Numbered from the whole stretch's first letter, positions 5,706 through 55,407 are shown. The stretch: DNA of 58,675 bases, filler included, from Sphacelaria rigidula (GCA_964200075.2; 10 parts of 10 records of this genome joined end to end with filler, not necessarily neighbours in it), one strand, 5' to 3'. Notes: generated by a model not told the origin, from the sequence alone. Program-made: numbers and translations.

Positions 5706-5778
5706 GGAGGGTGTACTCATTATCATGCATGCCATAGTCATGAGACCATTGACCTCGCATCCCTACAAAGCCAGGACG
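5706..5778 (-). mobile_element. C-tailed short retro-element, subfamily B (truncated by contig end)
   Basis: Minus strand reads CGTCCTGGCTTTGTAGGGATGCGAGGTCAATGGTCTCATGACTATGGCATGCATGATAATGAGTACACCC; matches copies at 21712, 29391, 30812, 39375 and 52899. Confidence 0.85.
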
Positions 5779-5878
5779 NNNNNNNNNNNNNNNNNNNNNN
5801 NNNNNNNNNNNNNNNNNNNNNNTTAATTAATTAANNNNNNNNNNNNNNNNNNNNNNNNNNNNNNNNNNNNNNNNNNNN
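5779..5878. other. Artificial contig spacer N44-TTAATTAATTAA-N44 (first of nine)
   Basis: Identical 100-bp spacers at 5779-5878, 11657-11756, 17535-17634, 23413-23512, 29291-29390, 35168-35267, 41045-41144, 46922-47021 and 52799-52898. The 12-mer puts stops in all six frames. Intervening segments are 5778 bp (x5) then 5777 bp (x5). Confidence 0.99.
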
Positions 5879-10695: not shown

Positions 10696-11564
10696 CTGCC
10701 AGCGCGGGATCGTTGAAGATACACGTTGAAGATACACGTTGAAGATAAAAAATGTGGCACATGGTGAAAACGGAGAAGCTAGACAGCGAAGTCCAAGCAT
10801 TTTTTTGGTTCGTGTCGTCACAATTTCAAGTCCACCCCTCTCCTTCCTCTGGACGAGCTCGTCGTTTGAAACGCTCAACCGGTTTCTCCACCAATACCTG
10901 GCGTACATTTGCTTGTCGACGATTGGACCATGACCATCAGCACAACCATACCCTGTCGACTCTGGTGGAGTTTCTTCTGCTACAATAATATCGTCCCCAG
11001 CCTTTCAACCATGGTGACCAGACGCTGCTCAAAATGACCGTGTCGATGGGGATTCGAATCTGCACCCGTCCGTCCTACCTCAGCGTCGGTAACTAACTTT
11101 CGGTAACCGTCGGTAATTGGACTGTCATTTCTATTCAGATCACTGGGTTTGGGTTGATTGGTTGATTGATTATCCCACTTCATGTGATCCCCCAGGAAGC
11201 CAACTCTGGTCATTATCCACATAATAGTCACATGATATAAGGTACGCCAGATGGAAACACAATGGAAAATATTCCCCGAAGAAAAGTGGAGAAGCATTAA
11301 CGAATATTACATCAGACAATAATAGAGATTGTAAGAGGTGCTCTCATTGTTTTCACAAGCTCGAACGCAGCTCGCTTGCCCTGGTCGCGGGAGGTGTCGC
11401 CTGATTGCCGGCCGATTGTCGAGTAACATTTCAGGCAACTTCCTCCATTCTGCGCGACGGTTTAAACCAAGATCCCGTATTTGGAGTGGGGGGGCGCGGA
11501 GTGTACTCATGATGTGACCATGGCTGGATACCTCGATGATCGGCTCGAGCGCAATAGTCGTTCG

Positions 11565-11646
11565 GGGGAAGGGCGGGGGGCGTACTCATTTGTTGCTTGC
11601 CTTGGTCGTTTGACCAATGACCACCCATCCCGTTCGAGACGGAGCG
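11565..11646 (-). mobile_element. C-tailed short retro-element, subfamily A
   Basis: Minus strand reads GCTCCGTCTCGAACGGGATGGGTGGTCATTGGTCAAACGACCAAGGCAAGCAACAAATGAGTACGCCCCCC. Confidence 0.85.
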
Positions 11647-11948
11647 GGGGGGGGGGNNNNNNNNNNNNNNNNNNNNNNNNNNNNNNNNNNNNNNNNNNNN
11701 TTAATTAATTAANNNNNNNNNNNNNNNNNNNNNNNNNNNNNNNNNNNNNNNNNNNNATTCACTTATTGACCGCTTTTCACTCTCAATCGTATCATCTACT
11801 CCCAATCTCACGAAAACACTGTTATACATGACAAATATCCAAATGTTCATGAAAAAGCTTTCGTGCGTAGCGAGAGAAGAACAGATCTAAACCTCAAATG
11901 TGGCATAGCTCAGCCCAATCCACCTGCGGGAGTGTCGCTGTCCAAGTG

Positions 11949-13893: not shown

Positions 13894-16800
13894 TCACGGA
13901 AGAGCCGGCAAAGTACACGAAGTGATTCCTGTCTCTGACAGCGCCGCGGCCAGGTTGAGAGAGTTCTCGAGTTGCTCTCGACACTTTTCGACTTTCAGTG
14001 TAGGGTCGTGCCTGAGGTATCTCTTGAGCTTGCCAGGTTTCGCGCGAAATTTTTGCTCGAACACAGCCTTAACAGCAAGGGCTGTATCTCGCAAAGCTTC
14101 ACCAAGCTGCTGTGGGCTCCATGCAGATTCTCGTTCGCTTTCGTCCATCGTGCCTGGGTGTTGCCGGGTCCGTAGTGGTCCTGTTTCTGCTGTTGGTCCC
14201 CCAACCGCCACGCCGTTTTTGGCGTACACAAGCCATGCGCGCGCAAGACGCGAAGTACGCCTTGTGACATCGCACTGTTCTTTGACGGTACGGTGAGACA
14301 CTTGCCACTGAAGAGACCTGTGCACAAGGGAGGCTTGCTGGGTGAGCGTTAGAAGTAGCTGAGACAAGACGAGAACCACCACAGCACTCGACTGATTATG
14401 GGCTTGATGTTCGGTGAGTGAAGAAACGTGGGTGAAGGCCATCCTCGAAAGAGCCCCAGTGCTTAGTGGTGATGAGTTCGCGGCTGCCATGCACGCGTAC
14501 AGTAACGCTTCCTCTGCAGCTTCTGCCACTTCAAATTTGATGGGCATCATTTCTGCGTGCGTAACTTCCCGCTTGTCCAATAAAACGGCCCACCCCTCCC
14601 TCACAGCTGTGTCTAGCACCTCCTTAAAATCTGAGCTAGTGCCCCCACATAAAGCAGTCAGCACCGATTGCACGGTGTGCGCTTCTCGCTTCACCCGGAG
14701 GTAAACCGCGCCGTGGTAATTCTGCAACTTGCCCGTGGAAACTGTGATCAGAAGAGAAATTGATGCATTCAGGTCTTCCAGCAAATGAGAAATTAGTGCC
14801 GCTACACCCGTCACCCGGCCGGTGGCTGCACCGGCCCACTCGGGGGCCGTTTCCGCTACTATTGCAGCAAATTTCAACGTGTTCGATATCTCGGTCTTCC
14901 ACTTGTGAAAAATAAGCCCCTCTGTAACCGTAGGTACGACAGTAGGGGTTTCCGCCACGGCTGACCTGGCGCTGGCTGCCTGGTAGTACAGTCTCAGTGT
15001 TGCATCCGCGAAATCCGTCACGCACTTCACCCTGTCCGCTAGTAGATCTACGCACCATGCGTACGATGGAGGGGGGGGGAGTGCCGCCGCCTTTTCCTGG
15101 GCAGCGACAAGCGCATTGAGGGAGTCACGCGCGGCACCTCTTCGAACGGATTGCATCAGTTCGTATGTCACGTACGCGTGCCGCCTCGTGTTCAAGATCG
15201 CCTCTTGCACGTCGCTCGGTGCACGCTTTTCCCTGATAACTAATATCACAAACATCACGGAGCTTCGGAGGGATGTTATCCAACGATGAACTACCATGGA
15301 CATGGCCTTCGCCTGTTCTGCGTACGCCCTCGCCATCGAACCGCCGCAAGCTTTCCTCCATTCCTCTTCAGCGATTAGGCAGCCCACAGGGACTCGGGAA
15401 GGTCCCCCTTCGTTCCGAGAGATCTGCGCCGCCCACTGCAAGATGATTGACATCTCCTCGCTCGACACGCTCAGGTTGGTCACCAATTCATCCGTTTTAA
15501 CTGCTCTTGTAAAAGCAGCCGGGTTGAGTGATGCTCTGGGAAGGCTGTCATCCTCGGGGTGTGCTTCTGCGGCAACCTGGATGCATAGCCTTAAAATATT
15601 CTTGGCAGCGACACATATCCCCATCACCGCACCACCGATATCTGTTCTCACCCTACTCGTCTCAGGGTTCAAGGGATCACTGAACCCGCGGGCTTCCGCC
15701 ACAGCGACCAGTAGCTCTATCCCCGAGTTTGCTTCTATCACTGTGCAAACTGGTAGCACGTTCGCCACCGTGTATGCTTCCCACGTGGCAATACACGCCA
15801 ATTCGTTGCGTTTCGATGCGGCGGCCTGCTCCTCGACGGAGTTCACCATCTGGCGACAGGAAAATCTCACTGCTTCCACCAGCTGTGCAACAGCCATCGC
15901 TAGAGAACTCACGGCGTGTAGAGTGCTGATAAAATCTTGACGTTGGCGGGTGCTCCAAGGCCCGACTCTAGTATCACCCCGCTCCCCCTGGTCATTGCTG
16001 TCCACCACGTTCCTCACTGACCCTCTCGGGTTTACCGTGTTCGAATATTTCACAACGAGAAGCCGCATCGTCTCGGCAACCGTCCAGGACAACCCAAACC
16101 ACCTCCCAAGATCCACAATCGCGAGGTGAAACTGCGGTTGCCTGTGGCCTTTTGGGCGTTTGTTTGTCATTTTACGTAATGGCCACGGCTCCCTCTCCAA
16201 AAAAGCAGATGCAGCGTTTCGGGCATTGCTTCGACCGCGGTTCGCTGCTTGCACGTTTCGCGGGACATCGCTGGCTCCCACAAACATTTCCGTGCCCCGC
16301 TTTGTAGGCGCTAGCTGCGCCGTTACAGGCGCAAGCGCAGCGCCCCCGATTGAACTCTCTTCATCGATGCTCCTCGGCGGAGCGGAGGCACTAGTCGGGC
16401 CGCCTATCACGGTGTTCGAAGGATACCTCTTGTCAGGCACGGGTGAGACGGGGCATTTGCCTTTCGATTTCATAGCCCGCGCAAGGTCAGTCACTTCAAG
16501 CTGTCTGGCGTCGGCTTCACGGAGGTCACTGCGGAGCTTCGTCAAAGCTGCCACTCGGTCCTGCATCCCGTGCGCATGGTGCATGCAACAGCACGCAATT
16601 GCAGGCCCAATAAACGTTGAGCATACGGTGCTTCTGGAGTCTACGTTAGATACGTTCCGGCACTACTACTCAAGATGTGACGTCTCCCGTACCGTATAGT
16701 ATGTGTGTAAATACGGGGGTATCGCGGACGAATGCAGGCGTATGCCAACGGAAACAACGGCTTTTGTGGGAATACAACAAGCGGTACTCAATACTCAGCA

Positions 16801-17202: not shown

Positions 17203-17464
17203 CTGTCTAAATGAACCGCGGGAACGGCACGGCGGCCATCACTCAACACAACCTACTGTGACTCGACCTGTACATACTCCTTCTGCTGGTGGGTAGAATA
17301 AACGAGACATGCAGTTAGGCAACCCTGTTCCAAAAATGTAAAACTCCTACAACAGCTGGAGAAGAGAAAATGTGCAGTACAGTCATACAATGTCGTACAC
17401 ATCAAGAACCGAATAGCTGAATGTACACACCAGGTATTTTTTACCAGTATTTACGTGAAGGGAG

Positions 17465-17534
17465 CGGGGGGGGAGAGGGGGGGGGGGGCGTACTCATTTG
17501 TTGCTTGCCTTAGTCATTTGACCATTGACCACGC
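17465..17534 (-). mobile_element. C-tailed short retro-element, subfamily A (truncated by contig end)
   Basis: Plus strand: G-run followed by CGTACTCATTTGTTGCTTGCCTTAGTCATTTGACCATTGACCACGC. Confidence 0.85.
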
Positions 17535-17859
17535 NNNNNNNNNNNNNNNNNNNNNNNNNNNNNNNNNNNNNNNNNNNNTTAATTAATTAANNNNNNNNNN
17601 NNNNNNNNNNNNNNNNNNNNNNNNNNNNNNNNNNGATAGATCATCAGTTAGAACCGGCTGAAGGAAAGTCCGCTTCTTGGGCGGTCCAGCCTGTATTGCA
17701 TCACAAGTAGTGGCTTGTACGAAACACACACGGTACCTTACTTTGCCCTAACGTTCCCCTCTCTTGCGCCATCGCTATCAACAATAACAGCAGCAGCATC
17801 ATCATTAGCAGCAGCAGCACAAAAACGACACAACTCTCAACAAAGAAACAATCCCTCAC

Positions 17860-18720
17860 GTCTGAATCCTCCTCGCCAACAGCCGAGATAGATCTCTTCC
17901 TGCTCAAACCCTCGCCTCCTCTGCCACCCTCCTGCCCCGCGCCCCCTCTGCCCCCCTCCTGCCCCGCGGCCCCTCTGCTGCCCTCCTGCCCCGCGGCCCC
18001 TCTGCCACCCTCCTGCCCCGCGCCCCTGCCCCTGCCTCGTCCCCTGCCTCGGCCCCTGCCTCGGCCCCTGCCCCTGCCGCGGCCGCCGCCTCTACCGCCG
18101 TCACCGCTACCACTACCGCTGCCTCCGCCGACAGCACCACCGCCATCCGTCCCCGCTTTCGGCAGCGCGTCGGCGGCCGCCACGGCACTACCATCGCCGC
18201 GTTGCGTGGCCTCGTAAGCCGCGAAGGCCGCCGCCGCCTCCTCCTCCGCCCTTCTAATCATCTTCTGGACTCTGGCCTTTTGCCGCGCAGCGTACTCGTC
18301 TCCATCGTTGTACTTGTCCTTGCTGATTTTGCTATATTTAGGCCGGCTACGAGCGGGCGCCGGCGCGGGCGCGGGCGCGGGTGCGGGCGCGGGTGCGGGG
18401 ATGGGGACGGCGGTGCTGGCAGCCCGGGCGGGGGGGGCGGCCGCGGCGGGGAGTGGGACGGCGGCGGTGGAAGCGGAAGCAGCGGAGGCGGTGGTGGAGG
18501 TGGCGACAGTGGCGACGGTGGGGGAAGTGACGGTGGTGGTGCGTGGTTGGGGTTTGCTCGTTGCTGACAGTGTGGCCGTCGTGGCCGTTGGGGTGGAGGT
18601 GCTCACGACTGCGAACGACCAGCCTCCAGGGCCTGTGCAGCGTGTGGGAGCGCGGGTTGGCGGGAAGGGAGAGGGAGGGGGGGAGGTCACAGGCATCGAG
18701 TAATCTTGCATGTCTTGATG
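17860..18720 (-). CDS. Putative exon of a low-complexity protein (Thr/Pro/Ala tract, charged helix, (GR)n and GQEGGRGxA repeats)
   Basis: GC-rich open frame with a non-repetitive core (RPKYSKISKDKYNDGDEYAARQKARVQKMIRRAEEE) and a good donor GAC|gtgagg at 17860. The 5' boundary is uncertain. Confidence 0.5.
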
Positions 18721-19109
18721 TCTTGAGAACAACAAATAGTACACGTGATAATGCTCTTCTCATGGGGTAGGTCGGGTACAACACACGAGAACAGTGCAGA
18801 CAAGCACAATCTAAATCTAGACACTGAAAGAAAAAAAAGTAACTTTGTGTCCAACACGTTCCCAGCTTTTTGTTGGTGACATTGCGGTATAGCTTCACAT
18901 AATCTTCCATTCCTAGGTGTGGGTGACAAACAGATAAAAGGGCGGACAAGCAGACAGACAAACAAAAACGAAAGTTGACTTGAGAAGCGGTGGGGGGGGA
19001 AGGGGGGGGGCATGAAATTTCGGACAAAGCATGAGTACAGATGGCAACATCTTTTGAAAGCTTCTGAGCCAGGGGCAAGTTGAGCACATAGTTGTCATCA
19101 ACGAGTAGC

Positions 19110-19307
19110 TAACCCTTACACGCGAGAGTAGGTCATCTGGTAAACCGGCATCAATTTCATTTGAAAAAAGTATACATACTCTGGATGAACTACCCTCGCG
19201 GTTGTAGGGCTAACGCGGTCATGCACAGCAATCCAGCCGAAGAGGAACCCCCTCGCGGTTGTAGGGCTAACGCGGTCATGCACAGCAATCCAGCCGAAGA
19301 GGAACCC
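19110..19307 (-). mobile_element. piggyBac-like MITE copy (~19110-19214) plus a 57-bp tandem duplication of one end and its flank
   Basis: CTAACCCTTACACGCGAG...CCCTCGCGGTTGTAGGGCTAA. The unit CCTCGCGGTTGTAGGGCTAACGCGGTCATGCACAGCAATCCAGCCGAAGAGGAACCC occurs twice. Confidence 0.7.
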
Positions 19308-21711: not shown

Positions 21712-21821
21712 GCGCTCCGTCCCGGTTTTTTAGGGATGCGAGGTCTATGGCCTCATGACTATCGCATGCAAAATCTTGAGTACGAGTACAACGCCCCCCC
21801 CCCCCTCCCTCCCCCCCCCCC
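21712..21821 (+). mobile_element. C-tailed short retro-element, subfamily B
   Basis: GCGCTCCGTCCCGGTTTTTTAGGGATGCGAGGTCTATGGCCTCATGACTATCGCATGCAAAATCTTGAGTAC followed by a C-run. Confidence 0.8.
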
Positions 21822-22479
21822 TGGTCGTCTTTATCCGTCGGTCCACGAAACGCACCTGCGCAACGGTACCCTCCCACATGCCATCGGCGCCGAAGCTTCG
21901 AGCGAAAGTAGCACCAATCAAGCTGCCCGCGATAATGTTTCCTCGAACCTTTGGCTGCATCGCCTGGTTGTTCCACGCATTTGAAAGGAGCAGTGAGGTG
22001 TGTCGTCGCGGACGGACAACGGACAAGAGCCAGCGCTCACGAGTACGCGCAGGAGGGACGACGGGGGAAAAGACGATACATTCCCGCATGATTCTATGGG
22101 ACTCACCCACACCCACCCACACACATATACGTCTCCCAACTTTGGAATTAAAATGTGACTTACATATGTATTCTACACTATAGAAATCGCATCCTCTTCG
22201 TTCTCCTCGTTCTCTTTCCCCACCACTAGAAAAAAGGAACAGACGAGCAAGCGGTGCTTCACCACAAGAACAAAAAAAAACGAATTTGTCCGGACTGCAC
22301 TGAAAAAAAAATCTTGCAAGAAACAAAAAGCAAAAAAACAACAGCGTCCTCCCAATTTACCTGACCATCTAGCACACGCATGCACGCACACAAAATCCGA
22401 CGACGTCACGGCCCCCCAACCCGTCCACCCACATCCCACCACCACTACAACAAACCTCTGCTGCAGGCGCGAGCACTCC

Positions 22480-23512: not shown

Positions 23513-26500
23513 GTGGGGAAAGCACTGTTTTAGGCTTGAACCTCATCTCGAAGTTAAACCCCAATTCGCACAATTTGTTGTTTAATATTAGCTTGAGAAT
23601 CGTTCAAGAACGGAATAACTTTCATGGAGCAGCACTGGCATCTACGACCATTTCTGGGACAGTCATGGGGTTCGGTGCTGCGTATGCAACTGAAGTTATT
23701 GATCTGGAACAGACCGAAGATCCTTCGATTAACTCACCGGTGGTAAAATCAGAAGTCTGGCACGGAAGACTGGTCACCCGTCTAAACAAGTGTTGCGTAG
23801 TGTGAAGAATATTACAGAACCAGGTGTTAACGTCGAGGGCACACTTACTTCATGTGACACTTGTACTATCAATAAACGTAGACAGCAAAATCACCCGAAG
23901 ACAACTAACTCGAACAACATCACCGATCATCTTCAACTTGTTATCACTGCTACTTTGGGTCTCCAGTGGCATCTATATAGCAAAGGTTGGTTTTGAGTGC
24001 ATGGCTAGATTTACTGATTATTTCAGAAGATTGAAGGTTGTATATTTGATCAAAAGTAAGGATGAAGCTTTAATGGTACTCCGGAAATTCATCCAAGATC
24101 TAGCAGGACTTCGAGAACAACGTCTGAGGACTGATCGTGGGGAAGAGTACATGACAGATTATTTTAGATCAGACTGTAAAATGACAGGAATTTAACAAGA
24201 GCATGCAGCACCTTATACGCCACAACATAATAAGATGTCGGAACCTGACGGGAGAACTATCATCAACGTTACTGGATGTCTGTGAAGTGAAGCAAATTTA
24301 CACAATAATATATGGGGAGAGATTGCTACAACTGCTGTATTTTTAATTGATTGCCTACCGCATAGTGGCATTAATGGTGAAATTACCTATCATCGAATGA
24401 ATGTTCGGAAAACATGCCAAATTACTACTTTTGCGCATAATCGGCTCGCGTGCTTTTGCACGCGTAGAACATCATATTAACAAGTGAGAGCAAAAGCATG
24501 GCATGGGAAAGTATCCTAGTAGGTTATGACTACCATAGTTCGTCTATTCGTATATATAATCGAGAAACTGGTCGAGGTATAAGTTCGAGAAGTGTCACCT
24601 TCGTAGAACAAGCATCCAGAGAAAACGGGAATGGAAATATTTCTGATTTTTTTAAACTTCCAAATGATAAGCAGAAAAGAAAATAGAAATTTAACGACGA
24701 TCGACGGTATTACTCAATCGGAGCATTCACCAACAGAGCAAACTACACCTATACGACTCTGTTCTGCAGGTAACCCCGACCAAGCTACATCCGAACGATT
24801 AAGCACGCGCCAAGCCAGAGAATTGCGCAATAACCTTGCCATCAACTCTACCAAATACCATTCGCACTCGAATAGAGTTCTCGACAGTGTTACCCAATAA
24901 ATAGGAGTAGTAAGTATCGAAGATGCAGTACCACCTACATCCATTCCAGTTCTAAACACCTAGAAACAGGCGTTATCTTCGCCATTTGCGACAAAGTGGA
25001 AAACTGCCACGCCAGATGAACTACGAAGCATAGCGGACCACAAAGTGGCAGATACTATTCCAGCAAGTTTGGTACCTCCAAACAACAACATAGTTGGTAC
25101 GCATTGGGTGTACAAAGTTAAAGCGGATGATAGATTCAAGACTCGTTTATTCGTACAAGGTTGGGCACAAAAACATGGGTTTGACTGTGGAAGTACCTCC
25201 GCGCCTGTATGTAGACTGGAGGGCCAGAGAGTATTACTAGCAATAGGTAGAACAAAATAAGTAGCCTATAATTGCTCTAGGTGTACAGACCGCATTTTTC
25301 AAAGGCAGATTATAATAAACTGTGTTCTATAAACAGGCACCGGGATTCGAAACATGGGTTTCGAAGCAATTGCAAGTGATCCGTGTGTTTATACAAGAGG
25401 ACAGCAACAGCATTATATCATGATTACTTTGCTCGTTGATGATACCCTAGTTGCAGGACCATCCATCGAAATTTCATAGAGTGTAAAAGATACTCTCAAA
25501 ACCAAATTTTCAATATCAGAGTTGGGACGTACTTTTGGTAAGGAGGTCATCAGAGATTCTGTAAGAGGATTTCTAAACCTTTCACAGCATAAATATGTAC
25601 TACATTTGCTACGAAAGGTCAAAATTGAATGTTAAAATACCGTACATACACCAGGTACAGATAATCAATAAACAGAAGAACCAGAAGAAAATCTTTCAGA
25701 TGGAGAACAGACGAAACAATCCCAAGCAACAGCAGGTCGTCTAATTTTTCTAGCACAATGCATCAGATTCGACGTGGCTTTTAGCGTTACTCAGGCAGCT
25801 TGCCAAATGAGTAAACCAAGTGCTCATCATTTAGTTCCAGTAACGCGTGTATTTCGGTACTTGAAAGGAATACCGGGTCTACATGCCATTTACCGCTTCT
25901 CAAAGGATAACTTAAATCTACGACGATATTGTGATTCTTCACACAGTAACTCAGGTTCACAAGGTAGAATGAGTTCAACCACAGGAACTATGTTCCTTTT
26001 AGCTCACGGATGAGTTTACTTTCCTTCAAGTCTGTAGGAAATTACAGCTTTTTCAACTACTGAAGAAGAACTTATGGCCCAAGCTAGATGTGGACAGTTT
26101 GAAATGTAACCATCGAACCTCCTGCGTGAACTTGGCTGGTCGATGAAAACACCCGCAATTTTCTCAGATTCTCAAGGAGCACTACATTTGTCATCAAATT
26201 CTTACTATAGCATAAGTAGCAAACACCCAGCCTCAATTTTTTTCAATCCCAAACATATGATAAGAAAAGATCAAATGAAAATCAATCACGTAAAGTCAGG
26301 CAATCATCTTACTGACAACCTCACAAAATGTTGCAATATTACAGTACACCAAATACTCGTGCAACAGGTGGAGGACTTTGGAAGATAACTGTTCAAGTGG
26401 AGCAGGTACTGGCGAGGAGAGGAATTCAGCATCGCTTCCAACGTCGCGAAGAAAATCAAGGATATATCACCAAGAGCAATGAATGGGCTCATCAGCAACG

Positions 26501-27512: not shown

Positions 27513-29130
27513 TTATCAGGAGTAATCTTCCAAGGCACCAGCTCTTCTAGACCCGCAGATGCCATCTCCGTGATTCCGATCATTATCCAGAACCCACCAG
27601 AATCCCTGTGCCCCCAGTCATTATCCACCCCATCTACCAACTCAACGTAACGGCGTATTTTCGTCATAACACCCCCAAAGCGCGTTGGACGAAAATCGAT
27701 CAATGAGCTTGACACATATAAAACGCCAAAACGATGAGTAATTGACAACTAGATACCAAACTCACTCGAAATGCGAGCAGCAACGACACGAGCCACACGC
27801 AATTCACGCAACTCCTGCGTAAGAAATTCCGGAACGGCCTCAAAAATATCCGTTAAAGGCTCCCATGTACGCTCCTCAACTTCGAAACCAAGTCGACCAA
27901 CACGATCAACGAACAATCATCTGCTTCTAACACTCGGACAATACCAGCCATCTGAAGTTGCCCCTGATTGAAAGCATGCTGGAACACGTCCTTAACGTCA
28001 GCCGTAACACTGAGCTGCGAGTCTGTATAAAACCGCACACGAGCTACAGGGGCGGTTTGAACACGTCCCGAAACAATGTTCTGGATCTCAAACACGTGCG
28101 GGTGGTGAGCACCTACCATTCTCCACGGACCAGTCCACGTCGCCATCAGCTTGGGCGTAACACCCGGACAACGCACGCGTGCATACACGACATAGTCGCC
28201 TACCTCGAAATTCGGCAGTTCCAACCCCGACGAGGATCCCTCACGTCTATGCGCACGTTCAGCGGCAACACGTTCCTGCACTTGAACGTGGAAACGTTCT
28301 CACAAGTCCAAGACTCCCTGCAGTCCATGCTTAGTTTGAACATCGTCCAAAACATCACATTCCCATTCCCCCGCCGACGAAGACGCCAGCACCGAGGAAG
28401 ACGTCCGACGAGCCCGACCAAACATCACGTGGTACGGTGTACTACCGTATCGTACCGACGACGATACGCTGTATTGAGCGCCCATTGCACCGCGGGCAGC
28501 ACGTCCACCCACTCGGAAACCGCTCTACGCTGCTCGAGAAGAATAGAGCGAAGAGCACGAACTACTTCCTTGACCATGCGTTCGCACGTGCCGTTAGACC
28601 ACGGAGAATACGCCACCGCAAACTGGTGATCAACGCGCAAAGCCTCTCGCAATCGGGCCATGATCGCATTCTTGAAATGCGTGGCGGTAACACTCACCCA
28701 CACACGCGGCACCCTCAGAGTTTTGAACAAATTCAGCACAGATGCAGCAGTCGATGCAGCAGTACACACTGGTACTGCTTCCAGAGACACAAAGTTACTC
28801 AAATCATCCATGATTACTAAAATGTATCGAAGCCCAGCATCCTCCGACAAACCTTGGGGAGCTAGCGGGTCACTGTCGCCCACGTAGAAGAAGTAAAAAT
28901 GAACGAATTCATTCGGCGTGGTTCCATGGACCGTTTCGCCGGGCGGGCGGGGAACAACATCGCCCACCCTCGAGTCAGCGCAGTGAAGACACTGGCTGAC
29001 AGATTCGCACACATGATGAATTTCTATCCCCTGCCAGACACAATTATCTTGCAAGCGCACGAGCGTTGCAGCCACACCACGATGCCCGGCGTCGCGCACG
29101 TGCGCGCAAATCATCAGACATATCGATTGT
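27513..29130 (-). mobile_element. Decayed Ty3/gypsy LTR retrotransposon, 3' part: integrase, chromodomain, PPT and partial LTR
   Basis: HHCC (AH..DAGHRG...CLHC), integrase core (YSPWSNGTCER), WTGPWR module, chromodomain-like GFEVEERTWEPLTDIFEAVPEFL, stop near 27749; GGGGG followed by TGTTATG LTR start at 27671. Frameshifted. Confidence 0.93.
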
Positions 29131-29290
29131 TGCCGAGATAGCCCCCCCCCCCCTCCGAACCAGCGAGAAAAGTGCACGGAGGCGATGGTCATAAGTGCGG
29201 GTTAGAGCTGGTTTCGTGCTGCACGACGCGACTTATTCGGGCGTTAAAGCTGATTTCAGACTGCTACACGCCTCTCATGTGGGCGAAATT
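29131..29290 (+). mobile_element. MITE (TGCCGAGATAGC-ended family) interrupting the gypsy pol; truncated by contig end
   Basis: Collinear with the left part of the complete copy at 53248-53484. Confidence 0.8.
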
Positions 29291-29390: not shown

Positions 29391-29465
29391 CAGCTTTGTA
29401 GGGATGCGAGGTCAATGGTCATATGACTATGGCATGCAAGATCATGAGTACCTGCCCCCTCCCCT
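29391..29465 (+). mobile_element. C-tailed short retro-element, subfamily B (at contig start)
   Basis: GCTTTGTAGGGATGCGAGGTCAATGGTCATATGACTATGGCATGCAAGATCATGAGTACCTGCCCCCTCCCC. Confidence 0.85.
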
Positions 29466-30811
29466 TTCGGATTGCCTCTGTTATCGCCAGCTGCCCAGAA
29501 ATCGCCGGTGACTGATACCCGAGTTACATGACAAGTTTTGCCTGTAACCTGTTCGAGGTTTCACATGCGGGGTTTTGTTCGCCACATTTGAAACACGTAC
29601 GTACATTCTGAGTACATCGTATTGCACTCAGTACATCGTATTGCACTCAGTACATCGTATTGCACTCCCTTGATCAAGGGGTTAGCTACCGCACTTGGAC
29701 TGTTGGTGAAAAGTGCGGTATGACTTGATCGGCACGGTGCCCAGCCAATGATGTTGCTCGGAGCGCCGTGACCCTCCGTCCGGAAAACCTTGTAGCACAC
29801 TGTTACCGCGTGAACTTTGATACGAAAAACAATAACCTGGCGAGGATCACTTCTATTCTGAGGGCACGACTTGGTTGCCATCGCTGGTGAGGTCATGCAT
29901 CATCGGCCGAAACCTGTCACGCGACAGCCATCACAGACCGAGCACGCGCGGTAGACATTGCGCAAAATTTGCTTTGGGACGGTTCTGACCCACTGTCACT
30001 TTCTGTGTATTTCGAGCCTGCCAAAAAATCCCAGAAAGTTGGCAGTATTTTCAGCGTAAGGGCAATGTCTGAGCAAGGATGATATACACGGGTTTCATTT
30101 TGTTTCTCCCAGATGATGAGAAGTTGAGGGTGTGCCCGCTTTTCTAGTGTGGTGCAACGGTGAAAATAGTTGCCACCTGAATTTGTTTGATACCGCGTTT
30201 GCACATGTTGCAGCTATCGTGAAAGCAAAACAGACACTCATACGAGCATGTAGGTTTTCGTTTCGGGTCGCACGGCAGCGTAGTAAGCGGGATTGACTTG
30301 ATCTAGGTCAAGCACGCCTCCATGCACAGCAGACCATGCAGGTGCTCGTAAAACAGTGTGCATCCCACCACTTTCATCTGGTTTATGTAGGCTTCTGAGC
30401 TCAAGGAAGAGCCAGCTTCGGTTCGTTAGTTATGGGGCTGCTGCTTTTGGAAGTTTTCACATCCCGGACAAAATATTCTATTGTAAAAAATGTACTGCGT
30501 ACAGTATGGAATCTGTTGTCTATTGCAATATGCACAAAAGTCGATACTGTACGCAGTACACTATCTGACGGTGTATTCTATTGTCTAGGGTGTGGAAGTT
30601 TTACAGTCACTTGTCTCTATTTTCGTCAGCCGTCGGTCGTTCTGTCACAGTTAGACTTGATCAAATGCCTCCTTCCCACGCCGTGCTCCAAGTCGTCAGT
30701 TTTGAACAGACTAGTTGCACACGTGTTGTGTGTGTCCATCCACGTCCGTCATTTGAAGCTTCTGTCGAAATTTATGAGTTTTTGTTTTTTCCGTCCCCCC
30801 CCCCCCCTTTA

Positions 30812-30880
30812 GTAGGGATGTGATGTCAATGATTATATGACGACGGCATGCAAGATCATAAGTGCACACCCCCCTTCTCC
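30812..30880 (+). mobile_element. C-tailed short retro-element, subfamily B (diverged)
   Basis: GTAGGGATGTGATGTCAATGATTATATGACGACGGCATGCAAGATCATAAGTGCACACCCCC. Confidence 0.75.
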
Positions 30881-31226
30881 TATAGTGGCAAAATGCGAAC
30901 TATAGAAGAAGGAGCGAGACGTGCTAGAGGGGAAATGCGGGAAGTAAACGGAGGTGGCATGAAATCGCTTGATGCACGAGACAGTTGGGAAAAAACGATG
31001 GCTATACTAGGAGATGGATGGTGGCCACAGACGGCGAAGCAGGACGGGGACGAAACATGTATAACGTTTTTGTGTAGTGCATGAGAGAAACGTAATGAGC
31101 GCCGAAATGTTGGAGGTATCTCTATTAGGAGTAGCAACGGTGCTCCGTTTTGAAAGGGGTGCGTAGTCAATGGTCAAACGACCAAGGCAAGCTACAAATA
31201 AGTACGCCCCTGCCCCCCGCCCCCCC
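30881..31226 (+). mobile_element. 5'-truncated, decayed LINE-like retrotransposon 3' end (probable parent of subfamily A)
   Basis: With one frameshift and three internal stops it reads IVAKCEL*KKERDVLEG/MREVN...AILGDGWWPQTAKQDGDETCITFLCSA*EKRNERRNVGGISIRSSNGAPF*KGCVVNGQTTKASYK*. This resembles the C-x-L-Y-x-x-E-R tail after the C-terminal zinc knuckle of LINE ORF2 proteins. It ends directly in a C-rich tail. Confidence 0.7.
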
Positions 31227-31325
31227 AGTGCTCCGTCTCGAAAGGGATGCGTGGTCAATGGTCAAACGACTAAGGCAAGCAACAAATGAGTACGCCCCCT
31301 CCTGCCCCCCCGCCCCCCTCCTCCT
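31227..31325 (+). mobile_element. C-tailed short retro-element, subfamily A (consensus-like)
   Basis: AGTGCTCCGTCTCGAAAGGGATGCGTGGTCAATGGTCAAACGACTAAGGCAAGCAACAAATGAGTACGCCCCC; core identical to the copy at 53582. Confidence 0.92.
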
Positions 31326-33115
31326 CAGGACGAGTCCGTAGTTGCATGGGATTAACCCATCTCTTTGTCAGGATCTCCCTTGATCGTCATTATTCATCAT
31401 TGCATCACCACTTTCGCAACTCATCGACTCTTTTACTGTATCGCCAGGTCATGCTCACGGGTCGTAGGAGATGAACGCTTGGAGAAGGACTAGTTTCGTT
31501 ATTCGGACGCATGAAATACCAGTTTGACCATCCGGGCGTCGCTTGCGGCATCGACATGCCTGTCCACACATGATGACCTCGATCATCCCCCTTCCTTCTC
31601 GCCCGCATCCTACCTCGCCCGCCAACCTTCTATTGAGTCGCAGGGCGCGCAGTCGTTCGTTGAACGCACGTTTGGCATCACTGGCTCGTCGGATCACTCG
31701 CAGTGACGCTGGCTAGCGCTGTGTACCATGGGCCTGGGACGAGTCCTGGTGCACGAAGAGCAGAGTGTGATAAATGGTAGTAGCTGATTCTGCAGAGGGG
31801 AAGAACATGAATGTTGCCAGAGCTTAGAGGATTAACGTCGGATCAATGAGAACGCAAGATGCGAATAGTTGAACGCTGGCATGCGTTCGCTCGCCGTGTA
31901 TATAGGTGTGTACAAATATATTATTGTGCGGCAGGATTTGTCGGAGGGGACGGGCTTACGAAGCGGGGATCAGGTCGTGTTTTGTATGGCGTTCTGCATC
32001 GTAGTGGAGGTAAATGGTGATTCTGTGGCACAAGGCATCAAATAAGAACCTCAAAAGTGTTGTGAAAAAACTAGTGCCGAATGGGCCATTCTCTTCCTAC
32101 TCGTAGAATCTATGAGGGTTGATACTTCGATGCCTACTGTTGTCTGAAGTTTTACTTGATACAGTAAATTCGTTGTCTCCCTACAAACAAGGAAGGGGGA
32201 CGAAAGTTTGCTTGTTGATGACCTTGAAGGTGGACGGCAATACCTCGTACTCAATGACGTGAGACACTCTATAGCATGCTTGAAGTGTACTCGCTCACTA
32301 CTGGTCGCCACTCGTCGAAAAGTCAAGGTCGTCCTCTCAGGTAAAGTGGAAGATTAACGTTTTGCTCAACAAATCTTCAGACGTTTTTCTCACTCCAAAG
32401 TCAACTGCTCTCTGCGTCTTTCTTACTCGGTGGGCATTCAACACTTCAAAACCAATTCAGTTATGTAGCAGATCATGTGGATGTATATAGCATCGATGCA
32501 AAGGACCACGCGGTGTACATCCCATCGATCGTCAAGGTCGACAAGCTATATATATACCCTTGAGTTTTGAAGTTCGGGGTTGGCTACGGAGCAAGCAGGT
32601 TATCAACACTTAGCGTCATGCCACGGAAGGGGTTGCACATTTGAACCCAGATGTTCACCAGTGAGGGGGTCCCAAAGTTAGGAGATGCACAATATTATGG
32701 GTCAGGGCGCTGCCGTATAAAAGTCCAGTCGAGATTTCCCCAGCCCAGTGAATTGCTGATCGTGGCGTGCTCTCCCTTATTTCATGGCTCATGTTTCGAT
32801 TGAGACGAAGGGCTGCTGCTAACAATTCAAATCTGAGATTTTTGTTTGTGCACACCCCCATCGTGGCACTGCTCTTTACACAAATACCAGGTGCCATGTT
32901 GACATTCCACCAGCAATACTCAGCAGCAGACGCAAACTATTCGTGTTTGCGGTGTGGACGTCCCTGCTCGTCTCCTTTTTCACTTCGATAGTTTCGACTA
33001 ATGACTCGTCGCGCGGCGCGACAGCGTCCATTCGATAATGGGTCACGAAATAACCGCCGCGCCCCTCTGGTTTAACCGATACGTTTCAAGACTCGTGAGA
33101 TTCATTAACAACGAT

Positions 33116-33886: not shown

Positions 33887-35324
33887 GTAAGCTACAGTAC
33901 GATCAGTCGGTAGAACGGTGCAGTATCCTATTGACGGCGGTGTTTTTATACCCTAACTGCGGTGTCTTTTCAGCATCTACGATCGCGCTAGGCGGCGGTG
34001 TATCTCAATCAGCGCGCAGTAGCGTAGATATTAAGTGCGTCGAAGCTGCACGTGTTGTCATAGGGCATCCATCCACGTGTGGCGGCCGTTTGTGGCTGTG
34101 TTATAACTGTTCCGAGAAAGTCGTGACAGATCTTCAATTGGGCTACTCGTGAGGATTTCGAGATTTTCAACGACCGGCCAACACAGGAGCGACAGTGATA
34201 ATAATCAGGACTAAGGACTTAGGTTGCGACACTGCACGAGCGAGAAGATAACCCCTAGAGGGCCCGGATATGGACAGCTCAGTTTGACAAGCATTTTTCA
34301 AGTGGACGTAATCCCTATTCGACAGATCGCAGACCTGCGCGCTCGAAGGTCCGGAGTTTCCCCGCCTCGAGGCGTGCAGATGGATTCATGACACCCACAT
34401 TTGATTTGAAATTGATGCTGGTTCAACAGTCAGTCAAATGCGTTCAGTCCATGTCCCATCGAGACGAATGGAATTCAATTCCAACATCACTTTTACTTGC
34501 GATTGGCCGCGGCGACACCACCTCTTTCAAGGTCAAGGATTAGGCACGAAAGCAGTGCAAAAAAAAAAATCGCGAACGTGATGGGCGAGCTTCTTTGTTT
34601 CAGTTTAGTCCGCAATATATCTTGATTTCAGTATGCGTCCCACACCACCACCTTCCACCCGATTTCGCCGGGACTGTCAGTCTTTCGAACGTGGCGTCGG
34701 GCTCGAAGGGTTGACGGGTGACGGATCAGGGGCTAGGGCGCGTTTCTGAATAACATGACCGGCTGCCCTTCGTCATCGGTAAACCAGGCGCTATAACTCA
34801 ACAGGTTCTCTCCGGTTGCGGCCATCAGCCAGAATGACAGCACGGTGTTGCCTGTGGTTCACAACCTATTCCAGCCAGTGCAGCGTTGTGGCGGATGGTA
34901 CAGTAGCTGTGTTTTGGTCGATCCAGGGTCACTATTTGGCAATGAGGTCTTCATCTGGCCAAGGTTTTATTTCCCCATGACCACGACCTGTAAAGACAGG
35001 AAATAGACCCATTATTCTGTTGTCGGTCAGAGAAATTTGTGTGATTTCAGATTTTTCGGGATATGTCTAATATTTTCAAAAACTATTGTAGCCTGTGGCG
35101 AAATCACGCCGTCACGATTGAGTATATAGTGGATCCTGGATGATGACCAGGGGACAAGGGCATCCTGNNNNNNNNNNNNNNNNNNNNNNNNNNNNNNNNN
35201 NNNNNNNNNNNTTAATTAATTAANNNNNNNNNNNNNNNNNNNNNNNNNNNNNNNNNNNNNNNNNNNNGGGGTGGGGTGGGCGTTCTGATGCGGCGCGGTG
35301 TTGGGGGTGGGGGGTGGTGTGTGG

Positions 35325-35408
35325 GTGGGGGGGGGGGGAGCGTACTCATTTGTTGCTTGCATTAGTCGTTTGACCATTGACCACGCATCCCTTTCGAGAC
35401 GGAGCACT
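35325..35408 (-). mobile_element. C-tailed short retro-element, subfamily A
   Basis: Plus strand: G-run then CGTACTCATTTGTTGCTTGCATTAGTCGTTTGACCATTGACCACGCATCCCTTTCGAGACGGAGCACT. Confidence 0.9.
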
Positions 35409-39374: not shown

Positions 39375-39450
39375 TGGGGGGTGTACCCATGATCTTGCAT
39401 GCTGTCATGAGACCATTGACCTCGCATCCCTACAACGCCAGGGCGGAGCA
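39375..39450 (-). mobile_element. C-tailed short retro-element, subfamily B
   Basis: Minus strand reads TGCTCCGCCCTGGCGTTGTAGGGATGCGAGGTCAATGGTCTCATGACAGCATGCAAGATCATGGGTACACCCCCC. Confidence 0.85.
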
Positions 39451-41144: not shown

Positions 41145-41252
41145 TAGGAGTAGGAACGGTGCTCCGTCTCGAAAGGGGTGCGTGGTCAATGGTCAAACGA
41201 CTAAGGCAAGCAACACATGAGAACGCCCCCCCTCCCGCCCCGCCCCGCCCCT
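41145..41252 (+). mobile_element. LINE 3' end / subfamily A copy at contig start
   Basis: TAGGAGTAGGAACGGTGCTCCGTCTCGAAAGGGGTGCGTGGTCAATGGTCAAACGACTAAGGCAAGCAACACATGAGAACGCCCCCC. Confidence 0.88.
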
Positions 41253-41599
41253 ACACCCGCCACTCGTGGATATCGTCGCCGTAATTGTTACTCTTCAAGG
41301 GACCAGGGCGTGGGAGGTCATCGCCGAGAAATATTCGGCGAAGTTTTCGCTGTTCGGCTTGCTCCGTTTCGTGCTCGCTGCTGTCTGCGAACTGCGTCTG
41401 CCATTCTCGTAGTCACTGTCGATTTTGGCGAGAATTCGGTGTGTGTGCGGGGGGAGGGGGGGGCGGGGGGATCGCAAACCTATTTCATTGTGACCCGGTC
41501 ACATGCGTCGAACAATAACTCTTGCGAGACTTATGTCGAAACCAATTCCACTTGGTCGGGTAGCTCATAACACACAGAAAGCATAGAGCTCTACGAACG

Positions 41600-42972
41600 T
41601 GTTCGTCGGGTTCGGCGTTGCCAAACGCGGAGAAGAATGCTTAAAATTGTTCCGAAAATGATGGGACGAGCCAATTTTATCCCCGAATTGACTCTTTTCT
41701 CTCTTTGGTGCCGAAAAGTGATGCATTGCAATGCGTAAAGGTTTGTGCCAAAGGACAATATCTTGAACATCCTAGCTTTAGGTGTTCCATTTCCGTTGTC
41801 ACTGTTGATTTCTGGTGACTAGGGGGCATCACTCAACGTGCGTCATAGTACCTTAATCGTAACCCATGAACACCAAATTTTGGAAGATTACTGTCAAAAC
41901 GGTTTTCGTCTAGGACGGCGTTGCCAAACACAGACTTCTTGATGGCCAAATTTGTTCCGAAAAGTAGGGGATAGGCCGTTTTCATCCTCGCCTTATTACT
42001 TTTTTAAAAAAACGAACCGCACTAGTCTCGTACACATTTGTAGCAAAGGAGGAGGTCTGAAACGTCCCAGGTGTTCCAGTTTCGTACTCATTATCGATTT
42101 CTGGTGAAAATTGAGTGATTAGGTGGCACCACTCGACGTGCGTGATGGAGTACCTCGTTCGTAACCGATGAACACCAAACTTTGGGAGATCACTATCAAA
42201 ACGAGTTTCAATGGGTTGAAGAAGAAGAAAAAAGGAAACAACAGTTTTCGTCGAGTAGGGCGTTGCCAAACACCGACTTGATGGCGAAACTTGTTCCGAA
42301 AAACAGGGGATAGGCGATTTTTATTCCTGCATGATTTCTTTTTTCTTGTTGAAAATGGACCGCGCTAATCTCAACAGCATTCATACCAAAGGAGAAGATC
42401 TGAGATGTCTAAAGTCACGAGAAATCAACTGCTGCGTGACGTGTACCGTAATTGAAACGGAGGGTGTTTTGGCCGCATTTTTTACGTCGATGGAGCCATC
42501 CTCCACATCTTCTCCGGCAACTTGTTTTGGTTATTTTTCAATTTTGAAAAGCTTGGGAGATAGAGGACCAATTTTTCTCTCTCTGGATATTCTGGGCATT
42601 GTTCTACGTGTCGTGGTTCCCACGAACCAAAGTTCCTCCGGTCAGGTGCCTTAAGCGTACCTTAATTGGGACATATACCTCTACCTTAATCGTAACCGCT
42701 GAACACCAAACTTTGGGGGGTTACTATCAAAACGTATTTCAATGAGTTGAAGAAGAAAAAAAAGAGAGATATATAGTTTTCATCGAGTACGGCGTTGCCA
42801 AACACCGACTTGATGGCGAAATTTGTTCCGAAAGCCAGGGGATAGTCGATTTTCATCCCCGCATTAAAATTTTCTTTCCTTTCTTTTCTCGAGGACGGAC
42901 CGCACTAATCTCATCAACATTTGTACCAGAGGAGAAGGTGTAAGGCGTCTAAGATCGCGAGAACTCAACTGC
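41600..42972. repeat. Complex diverged tandem repeat (about four units of ~300-530 bp)
   Basis: GGCGTTGCCAAAC...TTGTTCCGAAA...GGGA recurs near 41613, 41917, 42259 and 42791; TCGTAACC..TGAACACCAAA recurs near 41858, 42159 and 42690. Confidence 0.85.
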
Positions 42973-46824: not shown

Positions 46825-46921
46825 CCGGGGGGGGGGGGGGGGGGGTTTTTATTTGTTTTTTGCCTTTGTCGTTTGACCTTTGACACCCCCCCCCCTTCGC
46901 GAGGGGGCCCCGTTCCTCTCC
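46825..46921 (-). mobile_element. Degraded or low-quality subfamily A copy at contig end
   Basis: G-run followed by ATTTGTTTTTTGCCTTTGTCGTTTGACCTTTGAC. Confidence 0.6.
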
Positions 46922-52898: not shown

Positions 52899-52950
52899 CC
52901 TGCTCCGGTCTGATGACTATGACATGCATGATCATGAGTACACCCTCCCC
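52899..52950 (+). mobile_element. Internally deleted subfamily B copy at contig start
   Basis: TGCTCC-GGTCTGATGACTATGACATGCATGATCATGAGTACACCCTCCCC. Confidence 0.7.
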
Positions 52951-53247
52951 AATAGTAAAGGGGATTGTCGTCTTACAGTGATCAAATTTCTTGTGAGATG
53001 ACGATATTCACTCAATCGGGGTTTCTTCGTAGACGATTTGTCGCACTCACTCGAGAGTTCCAGAGGTCGGTAGGTGTTGAAAAAAACAAGTAGATCGTTC
53101 TCACGGTACATTTCATTCCCATTTTTGCGTTGTTAGAACGTTACAGGGTATTAAAACCCCGTATATCGAGGGGGATGTTTTCGAACATGTATGGCTGAAA
53201 AACACGTTTCTTGAGCTGTGAACAGCGGATCATCTACGTTGGACTGC

Positions 53248-53484
53248 TGCCGAGATAGCACCCCCCCGAACCGGCCAAAAAAGTGCACGGAGGCGATGAT
53301 CATAAATACCGTTAGAGCTGGTTTCGTGCTGCAATACGCGATTCATTTGGGCGTTATAGCTGATGTCGGACTGCTACACGCCTCTCATGTGGGCGGAATT
53401 GCAGCAAACGAGCGCAATAGTCAGATTGCAGCCGGGTTGTCAAGCGGTCTCCGGTGCACTTTTTGTGGGGGGGCTATCTCGGCA
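53248..53484. mobile_element. MITE with TGCCGAGATAGC terminal inverted repeats
   Basis: TGCCGAGATAGCACCCCCCC..AAAAAGTGCAC versus GTGCACTTTTT..GGGGGGGCTATCTCGGCA; second copy at 29131. No clear TSD. Confidence 0.85.
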
Positions 53485-53581
53485 TTAGTCGCATGGCGAT
53501 TTCGGGTGCGTTCTTCGAAAATACGTGCTCCCTACCTATTTCCCTTCATCACACTTCCAATCCCCCCCCTTCCTCGGGACG

Positions 53582-53662
53582 AGTGCTCCGTCTCGAAAGG
53601 GATGCGTGGTCAATGGTCAAACGACTAAGGCAAGCAACAAATGAGTACGCCCCCCCCCCCCC
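53582..53662 (+). mobile_element. C-tailed short retro-element, subfamily A, with target-site duplication
   Basis: Consensus-like core plus a C13 tail, flanked by C8-TTCCTCGGGACGAGT at 53562-53584 and 53655-53677. Confidence 0.95.
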
Positions 53663-54131
53663 TTCCTCGGGACGAGTCCGTGGTGTCAAGAGGTTACTTC
53701 ATCTTTCACCGGCACACACTTTGCACTTGGATTGGATCAGCACTCCCGCACCGCGCCATGCTTGCATGATATATTTCAATATACGCGTAATCGATGGAGT
53801 TGGCTGTCAATCGAACGTTTTCCCTCCTGACTCGTGCTGTGCGATTAGATGCGCTTTTTTCTTTTTTCCCTGTGGCATCGACGGGTAGGAAATTTTTGAC
53901 CACTACATCGTAGCCAAGCTCGTGTTCGCGACTTCCGTCGCGCGCTGTTTCTCGGTATCCGCGATAAAGTATAGCGTGACGGACGTACTCGGATCACCCC
54001 ACCGAACGCTTGCTGTCTGCTGTAGATGGACCGCTGGGTTCGTGATTAGGCCATGTGTGCGGTATACGACACGCCCACATTCCGGAGTCAGTAAACAGCC
54101 GCCGCTCCGCTTCTCGTGCACTTTTGGGCAG

Positions 54132-55407
<1,276 letters not shown>

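Follow-up and report, generated by a model that had tools for sequence, protein, structure and literature searches.

A poly(C)-tailed 70-nt repeat of Sphacelaria rigidula is most likely the 3' terminus of an RTE-X-like LINE, and also occurs as tail-only copies with a common 5' edge

Poly(C)-tailed LINEs of the RTE-X clade, with C-rich target-site duplications and with short derivatives that have the LINE tail in common, are already known from Ectocarpus, where they appear as entries of a curated transposon library (Genome Biol 2025, PMC12477816, Suppl. Material 3). As these entries describe them, RTEX-1_Ec32 (5867 bp) is a 'single EN-RT ORF; (C)n 3'' element with a 'C-rich' target-site duplication (TSD), and RTEX-2_Ec32 has '(C)n termini/TSD'. 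Two entries are non-autonomous: RTEX-N1, of 607 bp, is annotated '60 bp 3' end 83% RTEX-1_Ec32/RTEX-2_Ec32', 'can be present in tandem' and is the most abundant family of the Ectocarpus genome, while RTEX-N2, of 188 bp, 'could be SINE'. According to the same source, the short non-autonomous Ectocarpus derivatives have their last 60-100 bp in common with the RTEX LINEs (PMC12477816).

The repeat unit described here, about 70 nt long and followed by a C-rich tail, was found in DNA from Sphacelaria rigidula, and it compares closely with these entries. Like RTEX-1_Ec32 and RTEX-2_Ec32 it belongs to an element with a single EN/RT ORF, a (C)n 3' tail and C-rich target-site duplications, and like RTEX-N1 and RTEX-N2 it has short non-autonomous forms that have only a 60-100 bp end in common, as well as tandem occurrences; this likeness is judged by the published descriptions and by one Ectocarpus protein (P0006, see below). 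Unlike RTEX-N2_Ec32 with its 188 bp, the commonest short form here seems to be a bare, headless tail module of ~70 nt. Judged by its sequence features, the element is a (C)n-tailed RTE-X-like LINE of the Ectocarpus kind, in another genome. An earlier note on this DNA had put the unit forward as a candidate new system, a proposal that we do not uphold: the unit is the 3' terminus of an EN/RT LINE, and LINEs of this kind, with the features in question, already have family entries (the RTEX entries) in the library of PMC12477816. Bare tail-only copies with a sharp 5' edge were not found described in the accessible text of that paper, and we consider them modestly interesting.

The window, by which we mean the whole stretch of 58,675 bases that was analysed, consists of ten pieces of 5777 or 5778 bases each, joined by nine N44-TTAATTAATTAA-N44 linkers (5779-5878, 11657-11756 and so on). 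It contains eight copies of the unit that we call family A and six of a related family B (Table 1). A 24-mer from the start of the unit has five matches in the window at ≤3 mismatches, compared with no match of any kind in 100 shuffles, and a 28-mer and a 19-mer from its 3' part have seven matches each, with 0.00 and 0.02 expected from shuffled sequence. Since the three short copies at 31227, 35408 (minus strand) and 53582 lie on three different pieces, they represent three truly separate loci. Of the 20 piece ends, eight lie in units of family A or B or in the tails of these, which gives the impression that contigs break at the repeat.

Table 1. Copies of the repeat unit, their tails and their target-site duplications in the window (positions counted from the first base of the window).
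Feature	Position	Strand	Remarks
Family B copy, cut by piece end	5712..5778	-	direct-repeat comparison and sequence
Family A short copy, start GCTCC directly after C run	11581..11645	-	2 nt shorter than the other short copies; piece end 11 nt upstream; tail ~11564-11580
Family A copy, cut inside unit by piece end	17489..17534	-	tail ~17456-17488
Family B copy	21714..21793	+	~35 nt of B-specific sequence upstream; C tail 21794-21822
Family B copy, cut by piece start	29391..29451	+	direct-repeat comparison and sequence
Decayed family B copy, whose C tail received the family A long copy	30791..30865	+	direct-repeat comparison and sequence
Family A long copy	30881..31206	+	5'-truncated LINE fragment with decayed ORF; tblastn and sequence
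C-rich tail of long copy, target of the next insertion	31207..31226	+	near-identical to the run at ~31298-31318
Family A short (tail-only) copy, A + GTGCTCC ... GAGTACG	31227..31294	+	encodes (A)PSRKGCVVNGQTTKASNK + stop
C-rich tail / target-site duplicate of the 31227 short copy	31295..31326	+	sequence
Long degenerate C-rich tail with A/G/T interruptions, cut by piece end	35268..35340	-	sequence
Family A short copy, identical 5' edge (A + GTGCTCC)	35341..35408	-	motif matches, tblastn
Family B copy with B-specific upstream sequence and short C tail	39382..39449	-	direct-repeat comparison and sequence
Family A long copy, cut by piece start	41145..41225	+	unit at 41159; tail 41226-41262
Degenerate family A long-form copy, cut by piece end	46846..46921	-	C run 46827-46845
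Family B copy, cut by piece start	52899..52942	+	tail 52943-52950
Upstream target-site duplication of the 53582 copy	53562..53583	+	8 C + 14-nt unique stretch
Family A short copy	53582..53649	+	edge ambiguous by 2-3 nt, because its first letters, AG, also belong to the flanking direct repeat
C tail merged with downstream target-site duplication copy	53650..53676	+	13-C run 53650-53662, then the same 14 nt 53663-53676

We conclude, with a probability of roughly 85%, that the unit forms the 3' end of a (C)n-tailed LINE, whose own machinery copies it. None of the 92 frames of the window (7 + 85; stop-to-stop, or starting at ATG/GTG/TTG) matches the reverse transcriptase family RVT_1, the only hits being weak LTR-element integrase matches; the link between the unit and an ORF therefore comes from contigs outside the window, whose protein is 90% identical to the LINE protein P0004. 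A pattern scan of metagenome contigs returned 73 loci, and three of them (L013, L021 and L054) carry the whole unit and the C run, as do both matches in a genome collection (L074 and L075), which lie on contigs filed under bacterial MAGs that we presume to be algal contamination. In L013 an open frame of 681 residues (P0003; RVT_1 match, E 2.8e-33) runs through the unit and ends in ...NGAPSRKGCVVNGQMTKASNK, and the open frames of L013, L021 and L054 all end in ...GCVVNG..KASNK*. P0004, a full-length relative of 1360 aa, is 90% identical to P0003, and P0005, likewise full-length, 77% identical; when P0004 was used in a tblastn search, the LINE protein aligned to its very last residue (1360) at the unit in all five outside loci. 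The precomputed domains of P0004 and P0005 include PF03372 and PF00078, and in P0004 also PF14529, and the architecture seen in the outside contigs, not in the window, is that of one ORF with an N-terminal apurinic-type endonuclease followed by the reverse transcriptase.

The ORF stops at a TGA inside AAATGAGTACG and the C run begins 5 nt later, so that the 70-nt unit is made up of the last ~20 codons (...APSRKGCVVNGQ(M/T)TKASNK), the TGA stop and a 5-nt 3' UTR, GTACG, after which the (C)n tail follows. This coding nature had been missed by the earlier note. The family A copies of the window translate in the LINE ORF frame as well (tblastn): residues 576-681 of P0003 align at 30882-31198, with stops present, and the decayed ORF reaches ~320 bases upstream of the unit at 31140. 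The copy in question closes with a 67-nt unit (31140-31206) that likewise ends in the stop codon and GTACG. The clade is most likely RTE-X, as in Ectocarpus, an assignment that draws on the closest named relative, the Ectocarpus protein P0006 (71% identical over 67% of the query), and on features matching the published descriptions. The gene model of P0006 is a 1927-aa chimera that joins a gypsy-type pol with a NADAR-like domain to 450 C-terminal residues of the LINE ORF; it is probably an annotation artefact across nested transposons.

The remaining 70 of the 73 metagenome loci were rejected as relatives, as the rest of the unit is absent from them; 69 lie in one coding-looking context and one in another, unrelated context. 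The context common to the 69 contigs is probably the bacterial ispG/gcpE motif (MGCVVNGPGE). The 20-nt core of the unit, which encodes GCVVNG, is identical to a stretch in these 69 contigs, presumably by coincidence. In viral contigs neither a relative of P0004 nor a match to the pattern was found.

The unit had been drawn in the earlier note as a multi-stem RNA, and the drawing itself stands insofar as it is the minimum free energy fold, a three-way junction of -18.7 kcal/mol that is likewise predicted for L013 and L054. A structured RNA is not supported by it: the fold is no better than that of shuffled sequence (z -1.27; 21 of 200 shuffles at least as stable), and in 11 family A copies, which show little sequence variation, not one of the 21 pairs is changed on both sides, the share of paired cells being 95.7%, against 95.8% in shuffles. 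In the MAFFT alignment the 5' part of family B was wrongly matched to that of A, and these pair counts therefore cover the 11 family A copies, to the exclusion of two B copies and the cut copies. For five further copies the z-scores ranged from -0.10 to -1.89; three of these, the 31140 unit and two B copies, took other architectures, and the outer helix is absent from the predicted fold in three of the six copies folded. We thus regard it as highly improbable that the unit is an independent small retro-element, or a processed structured RNA with a three-way junction and a GNRA loop, that merely resembles LINE ends. The agreement between drawn and predicted junction would be in its favor, as would the lack of a matching Rfam family, there being none in the window at the gathering score and, in a cmscan of 31100-31360 at E up to 10, two unrelated chance matches only, both outside the unit. 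Against it, in addition to the weak z-scores, the deviating folds and the missing covariation, stand the position of the unit, in frame with and completing the LINE ORF in 5/5 outside copies, and the listing of (C)n-tailed RTE-X LINEs together with tail-sharing derivatives in the Ectocarpus library (PMC12477816).

What families A and B have in common is a set of short motifs, namely GCTCCG, AGGGATGCG.GGTCAATGGTC, GGTC.ATGG, a GGCA.GCA stretch and the final GAGTAC with the C run; the core of the 70-nt unit is GGUCAAUGGUC. The two families diverge upstream of GCTCC and also within two stretches that look like loops. Owing to indels between the two families, the common motif stands in a different register relative to the upstream GCTCCG and the terminal TGA (counted by hand), and its conservation is therefore not explained by one common reading frame. 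LINE proteins that are 41-43% identical to P0003 (P0007-P0010) still end in GCVVNG-like peptides, past low-complexity tails that cannot be aligned, and the conservation of the last codons could reflect a protein rather than an RNA constraint. Family B has the trait published for the Ectocarpus derivatives, a module in common with A and an upstream sequence that is not (PMC12477816). Because the module is kept at the nucleotide level in family B, where the upstream sequence is unrelated, it is a candidate recognition module of the enzyme; the comparison of the two families suggests that the last ~65-70 nt are a cis-acting nucleotide module, which would most plausibly be what the reverse transcriptase recognises.

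LINE/SINE pairs of the stringent type, such as eel UnaL2 and UnaSINE1, or Bov-B of the RTE family and its SINEs, have a common 3' tail. The situation here is alike in that a short conserved 3' module is common to the partners (family A and family B), and it differs in that there is no Pol III head on the short form, the ORF ends within the module, and the tail is (C)n, not a short microsatellite. The Rfam model of the UnaL2 3' element has no match, either in the window at the gathering score or in 31100-31360 at E up to 10. That the short copies carry no Pol III head, as had been proposed, is borne out by ARAGORN and, at the gathering score, Rfam, neither of which has a match of that kind in the window, and by the short copies themselves, which are without any sequence upstream of the module.

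A C run or C-rich run follows all eight family A copies of the window and 5/5 outside copies. The tails in the window are degenerate, C-rich with scattered T, G or A, and poly(A) follows no copy, in agreement with the earlier description of a C tail in place of poly(A). Flanking repeats that start with a C run were seen at three insertions (53582, 31227 and the 31140 long copy), the other copies being cut by piece ends. The 53582 short copy has a clear target duplication of 22 nt, (C)n followed by the same 14 unique bases on both sides. The 31227 short copy stands between near-identical C-rich runs (31207-31226 and ~31298-31318), that is, inside the tail of the older 31140 copy; the long copy is in turn flanked by CCCCCCT(T/C)CTCCT, at 30868-30880 and after 31314 (by eye), and begins immediately behind the C tail that a family B copy left there. 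The insertions are thus nested, short copy within the tail of the long copy and long copy within the tail of the family B copy.

In L1 and Alu, the poly(A) tail of the RNA pairs with the T-rich nicked target. By analogy, we suggest target-primed reverse transcription by the LINE's enzyme, in which the endonuclease would nick the bottom strand where it has a run of G, the element's strand having C there, and the G-ended primer would pair with the C tail of the RNA. Such pairing would place insertions between target duplications that start with a C run, and since C runs would be the sites of pairing, the tails of older copies would often be hit, giving nested and head-to-tail arrangements. In this scheme, as in L1 and Alu, a homopolymer tail would pair with a run at the nick, the tail and the duplication, which starts in the same homopolymer, run into each other, and old tails serve as new targets. 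The differences are that the tail is of C rather than A, so that ordinary polyadenylation cannot supply it, that the element is of another clade with one ORF, and that the enzyme here probably also requires a specific 3' module. Literature searched on poly(C) tails of non-LTR retrotransposons and on target-primed reverse transcription yielded nothing pertinent.

The head-to-tail units might also be read as a satellite amplified at the DNA level, by unequal crossing-over or replication slippage, a reading suggested by the adjacency of the units at 31140 and 31228 and by joints that go back 75-79 nt in many contigs of the sequencing runs described below. We consider it very unlikely. Six of 67 positions distinguish the adjacent units, whose tails are nearly the same, and this is better explained by a young copy inserted into an old tail than by a duplication; moreover, the three short copies do not stand together but on separate pieces, and a 22-nt target duplication is clear in at least one of them.

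We now turn to the 5' edge of the short copies. The copies at 31227, 35408 (minus) and 53582 do start alike, as the earlier note had observed, with A-GTGCTCC and with identity over the 24-mer, apart from the ambiguity of 2-3 bases at 53582; longer copies differ at the edge, as it had also stated, those at 31140 and 41159 reading AACG-GTGCTCC (CGGTGCTCC) at the position where the short copies begin. Two copies (31227 and 35408) have at their 5' junction an extra A that the long form lacks. Seven copies in the window have an assessable 5' side: four (31227, 35408, 53582 and 11645) start within 3 bases, three (31140, 41159 and 46921) continue upstream of the edge, and the eighth is cut inside the unit. 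The edge lies within 0-2 nt of the start of the block common to A and B and 59-60 nt upstream of the stop codon, a distance of about two ribosome widths. It is also the first base of the predicted outer helix, whose 3' side is followed by G and the C run.

The edge can be seen as well in public sequencing data, where contigs of four runs were compared with 52899-54400 of the window. Among the best-supported joints listed (364 further ones exist), 14 of 15 lead from the C-rich tail to 53582-53586, within 5 bases, the fifteenth being an opposite-strand joint; three of the listed joints go back 75, 77 and 79 bases and thus represent head-to-tail units. The loose ends that face upstream within the unit, among those listed (877 further), are at 53583, 53584 and 53586 only. 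At 53583 the upstream consensus is that of the long form, ...AGGAGTAGGAACG (649 contigs in run X1), and at 53584 a C run and then A stand upstream (283 contigs). In run X1 the summed contig depth, which is not a copy number, is ~2.1e7 on the unit vs ~72 on the adjoining unique stretch. It is near flat over the two halves of the unit, 1.08e7 (30 covered bases of the bin) vs 2.09e7 (full bin), and few copies therefore end inside the unit.

We propose that the short copies are tail-only retrocopies of the module that would have been made by the LINE's enzyme, and as the source of the edge we slightly favor a discrete short template RNA over abortive copying. The short template might be a decay or processing product trimmed to a protein-bound module, or might come from transcripts of short master copies. 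The earlier suggestion of a headless non-autonomous element falls as a new system, and stays alive for the short copies, whose 5' ends pile up within 5 bases and which include one copy with a clear target duplication (53582) and one between near-identical C-rich runs (31227). In its strongest form the bare ~70-nt module would be a replicating headless non-autonomous retroposon with very many copies, the 5' end of its RNA being set by a specific event; we put this forward tentatively and think it rather unlikely. The event might be initiation where a C run meets A in tandem copies, or trimming by an endo- or exonuclease down to a core protected by protein or ribosomes. Equally tentative is the further reading that a retroposon of this kind would consist of only the LINE's recognition module, which also encodes the conserved C-terminal GCVVNG peptide.

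LINE insertions are as a rule truncated at the 5' side, and the short copies could be ordinary insertions of this sort, for which fall-off, or the joining of the cDNA, is favored ~70 nt from the 3' end, with no separate short RNA involved; this concerns only the proposed origin of the edge, not the identity of the unit. A truncated copy of 320 nt does adjoin a short copy (31140/31227), and very few bases of the unit set short and long forms apart; both observations are as truncation predicts. A constant rate of fall-off, however, gives no pile-up of ends such as that seen in 4/7 window copies and 14/15 listed joints, and the near-flat depth, with few copies ending inside the unit, argues in the same direction, as does the fact that the flanks show no consistent microhomology to LINE sequence just upstream of the edge (three short copies, by eye). 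A stop induced by a helix is expected at the 3' side of the helices, not after the whole domain has been copied. We therefore regard truncation as possible and on the whole doubtful. For the same reason, and with the fold unsupported, a structure-imposed stop of reverse transcription, which had been offered as one origin of the edge, is the weakest option.

Precise RNA 5' ends are set in some LINEs by HDV-like ribozymes, which occur at the ends of R2, RTE and L1Tc elements; there they sit at the 5' end of the element. A cut by RNA processing could in principle have produced the edge here too, by a self-cleaving ribozyme or by RNase P-type cleavage at the foot of a stem resembling a tRNA acceptor stem (the outer helix, then a single unpaired base, and CCC in place of CCA). 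The coincidence of the edge with the first base of the outer helix, with G and the C run past the 3' strand, would be in line with this, and the extra A of two copies is expected if the template really ended there. Nonetheless, we consider this reading very improbable: no ribozyme or tRNA-like family matches 31100-31360 in Rfam at E up to 10, HDV-like ribozymes included, ARAGORN finds nothing in the window, and the outer helix is without covariation and is not predicted in half of the folded copies (3/6). Two specific ribozymes were rejected by eye, the hammerhead since there is no CUGAUGA core, and an HDV-like fold since the spacing between the candidate P1 strands is too short, with too little sequence between them.

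Several other features of the window were noted in passing. The motif TCCTC.GGACGAG..CGT.GT follows a C-rich run at three loci (10843-10865, 31322-31342 and 53664-53684) and could represent another C-run-flanked element at its 5' end; the sequencing runs show the ~100 nt beyond 53664 to be strongly repeated too, with a depth of ~4e5 and then 7e4, vs 72. Fragments of LTR retrotransposons, with weak matches to the integrase core or integrase zinc domain, lie at 23806-24192 (+), 25672-26013 (+) and 28425-29201 (-), and a frame resembles a copia-type pol fragment by eye; 29150-29290 recurs at 53261-53400 with ~90% identity. Contigs of ~1.2 kb from three runs guessed to be RNA match only the 90 bases at 54129-54218, with no mismatches, and this stretch looks like an exon of a spliced gene. 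An 896-aa ORF at 13894-16584 (-) matches no Pfam family; of 5.8 billion proteins only two are related to it, at 100% and 79% identity, and both come from run assemblies. Further repeats include several interleaved direct repeats at 41633-42876 (spacing ~300-530 nt, 63-87% identity; tandem or nested), a perfect 57-nt tandem duplication at 19193-19306, and a C-rich imperfect tandem repeat at 17909-18043, inside the ORF 17701-18744, with a weak collagen-like Pfam match on an overlapping frame.

At the level of the system there is thus little that is new, given the Ectocarpus precedent published in 2025 in the library entries of PMC12477816. What is added here is that this kind of LINE is extremely abundant in another algal genome and present in marine metagenome contigs; that its ORF ends five bases from the tail, which makes the cis module overlap the last 20 codons; and that tail-only copies begin at a common, sharp 5' edge where the conserved module starts. 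Should a discrete RNA lie behind this edge, its ~70 nt would be the minimal template for LINEs of this group, and if the short copies were indeed a headless retroposon, they would be the smallest known LINE-dependent retroposon and would delimit the minimal cis requirement of a (C)n-tailed LINE. A discrete RNA would, in addition, bear on how stringent LINE reverse transcriptases choose their RNA and on the origin of homopolymer tails other than poly(A).
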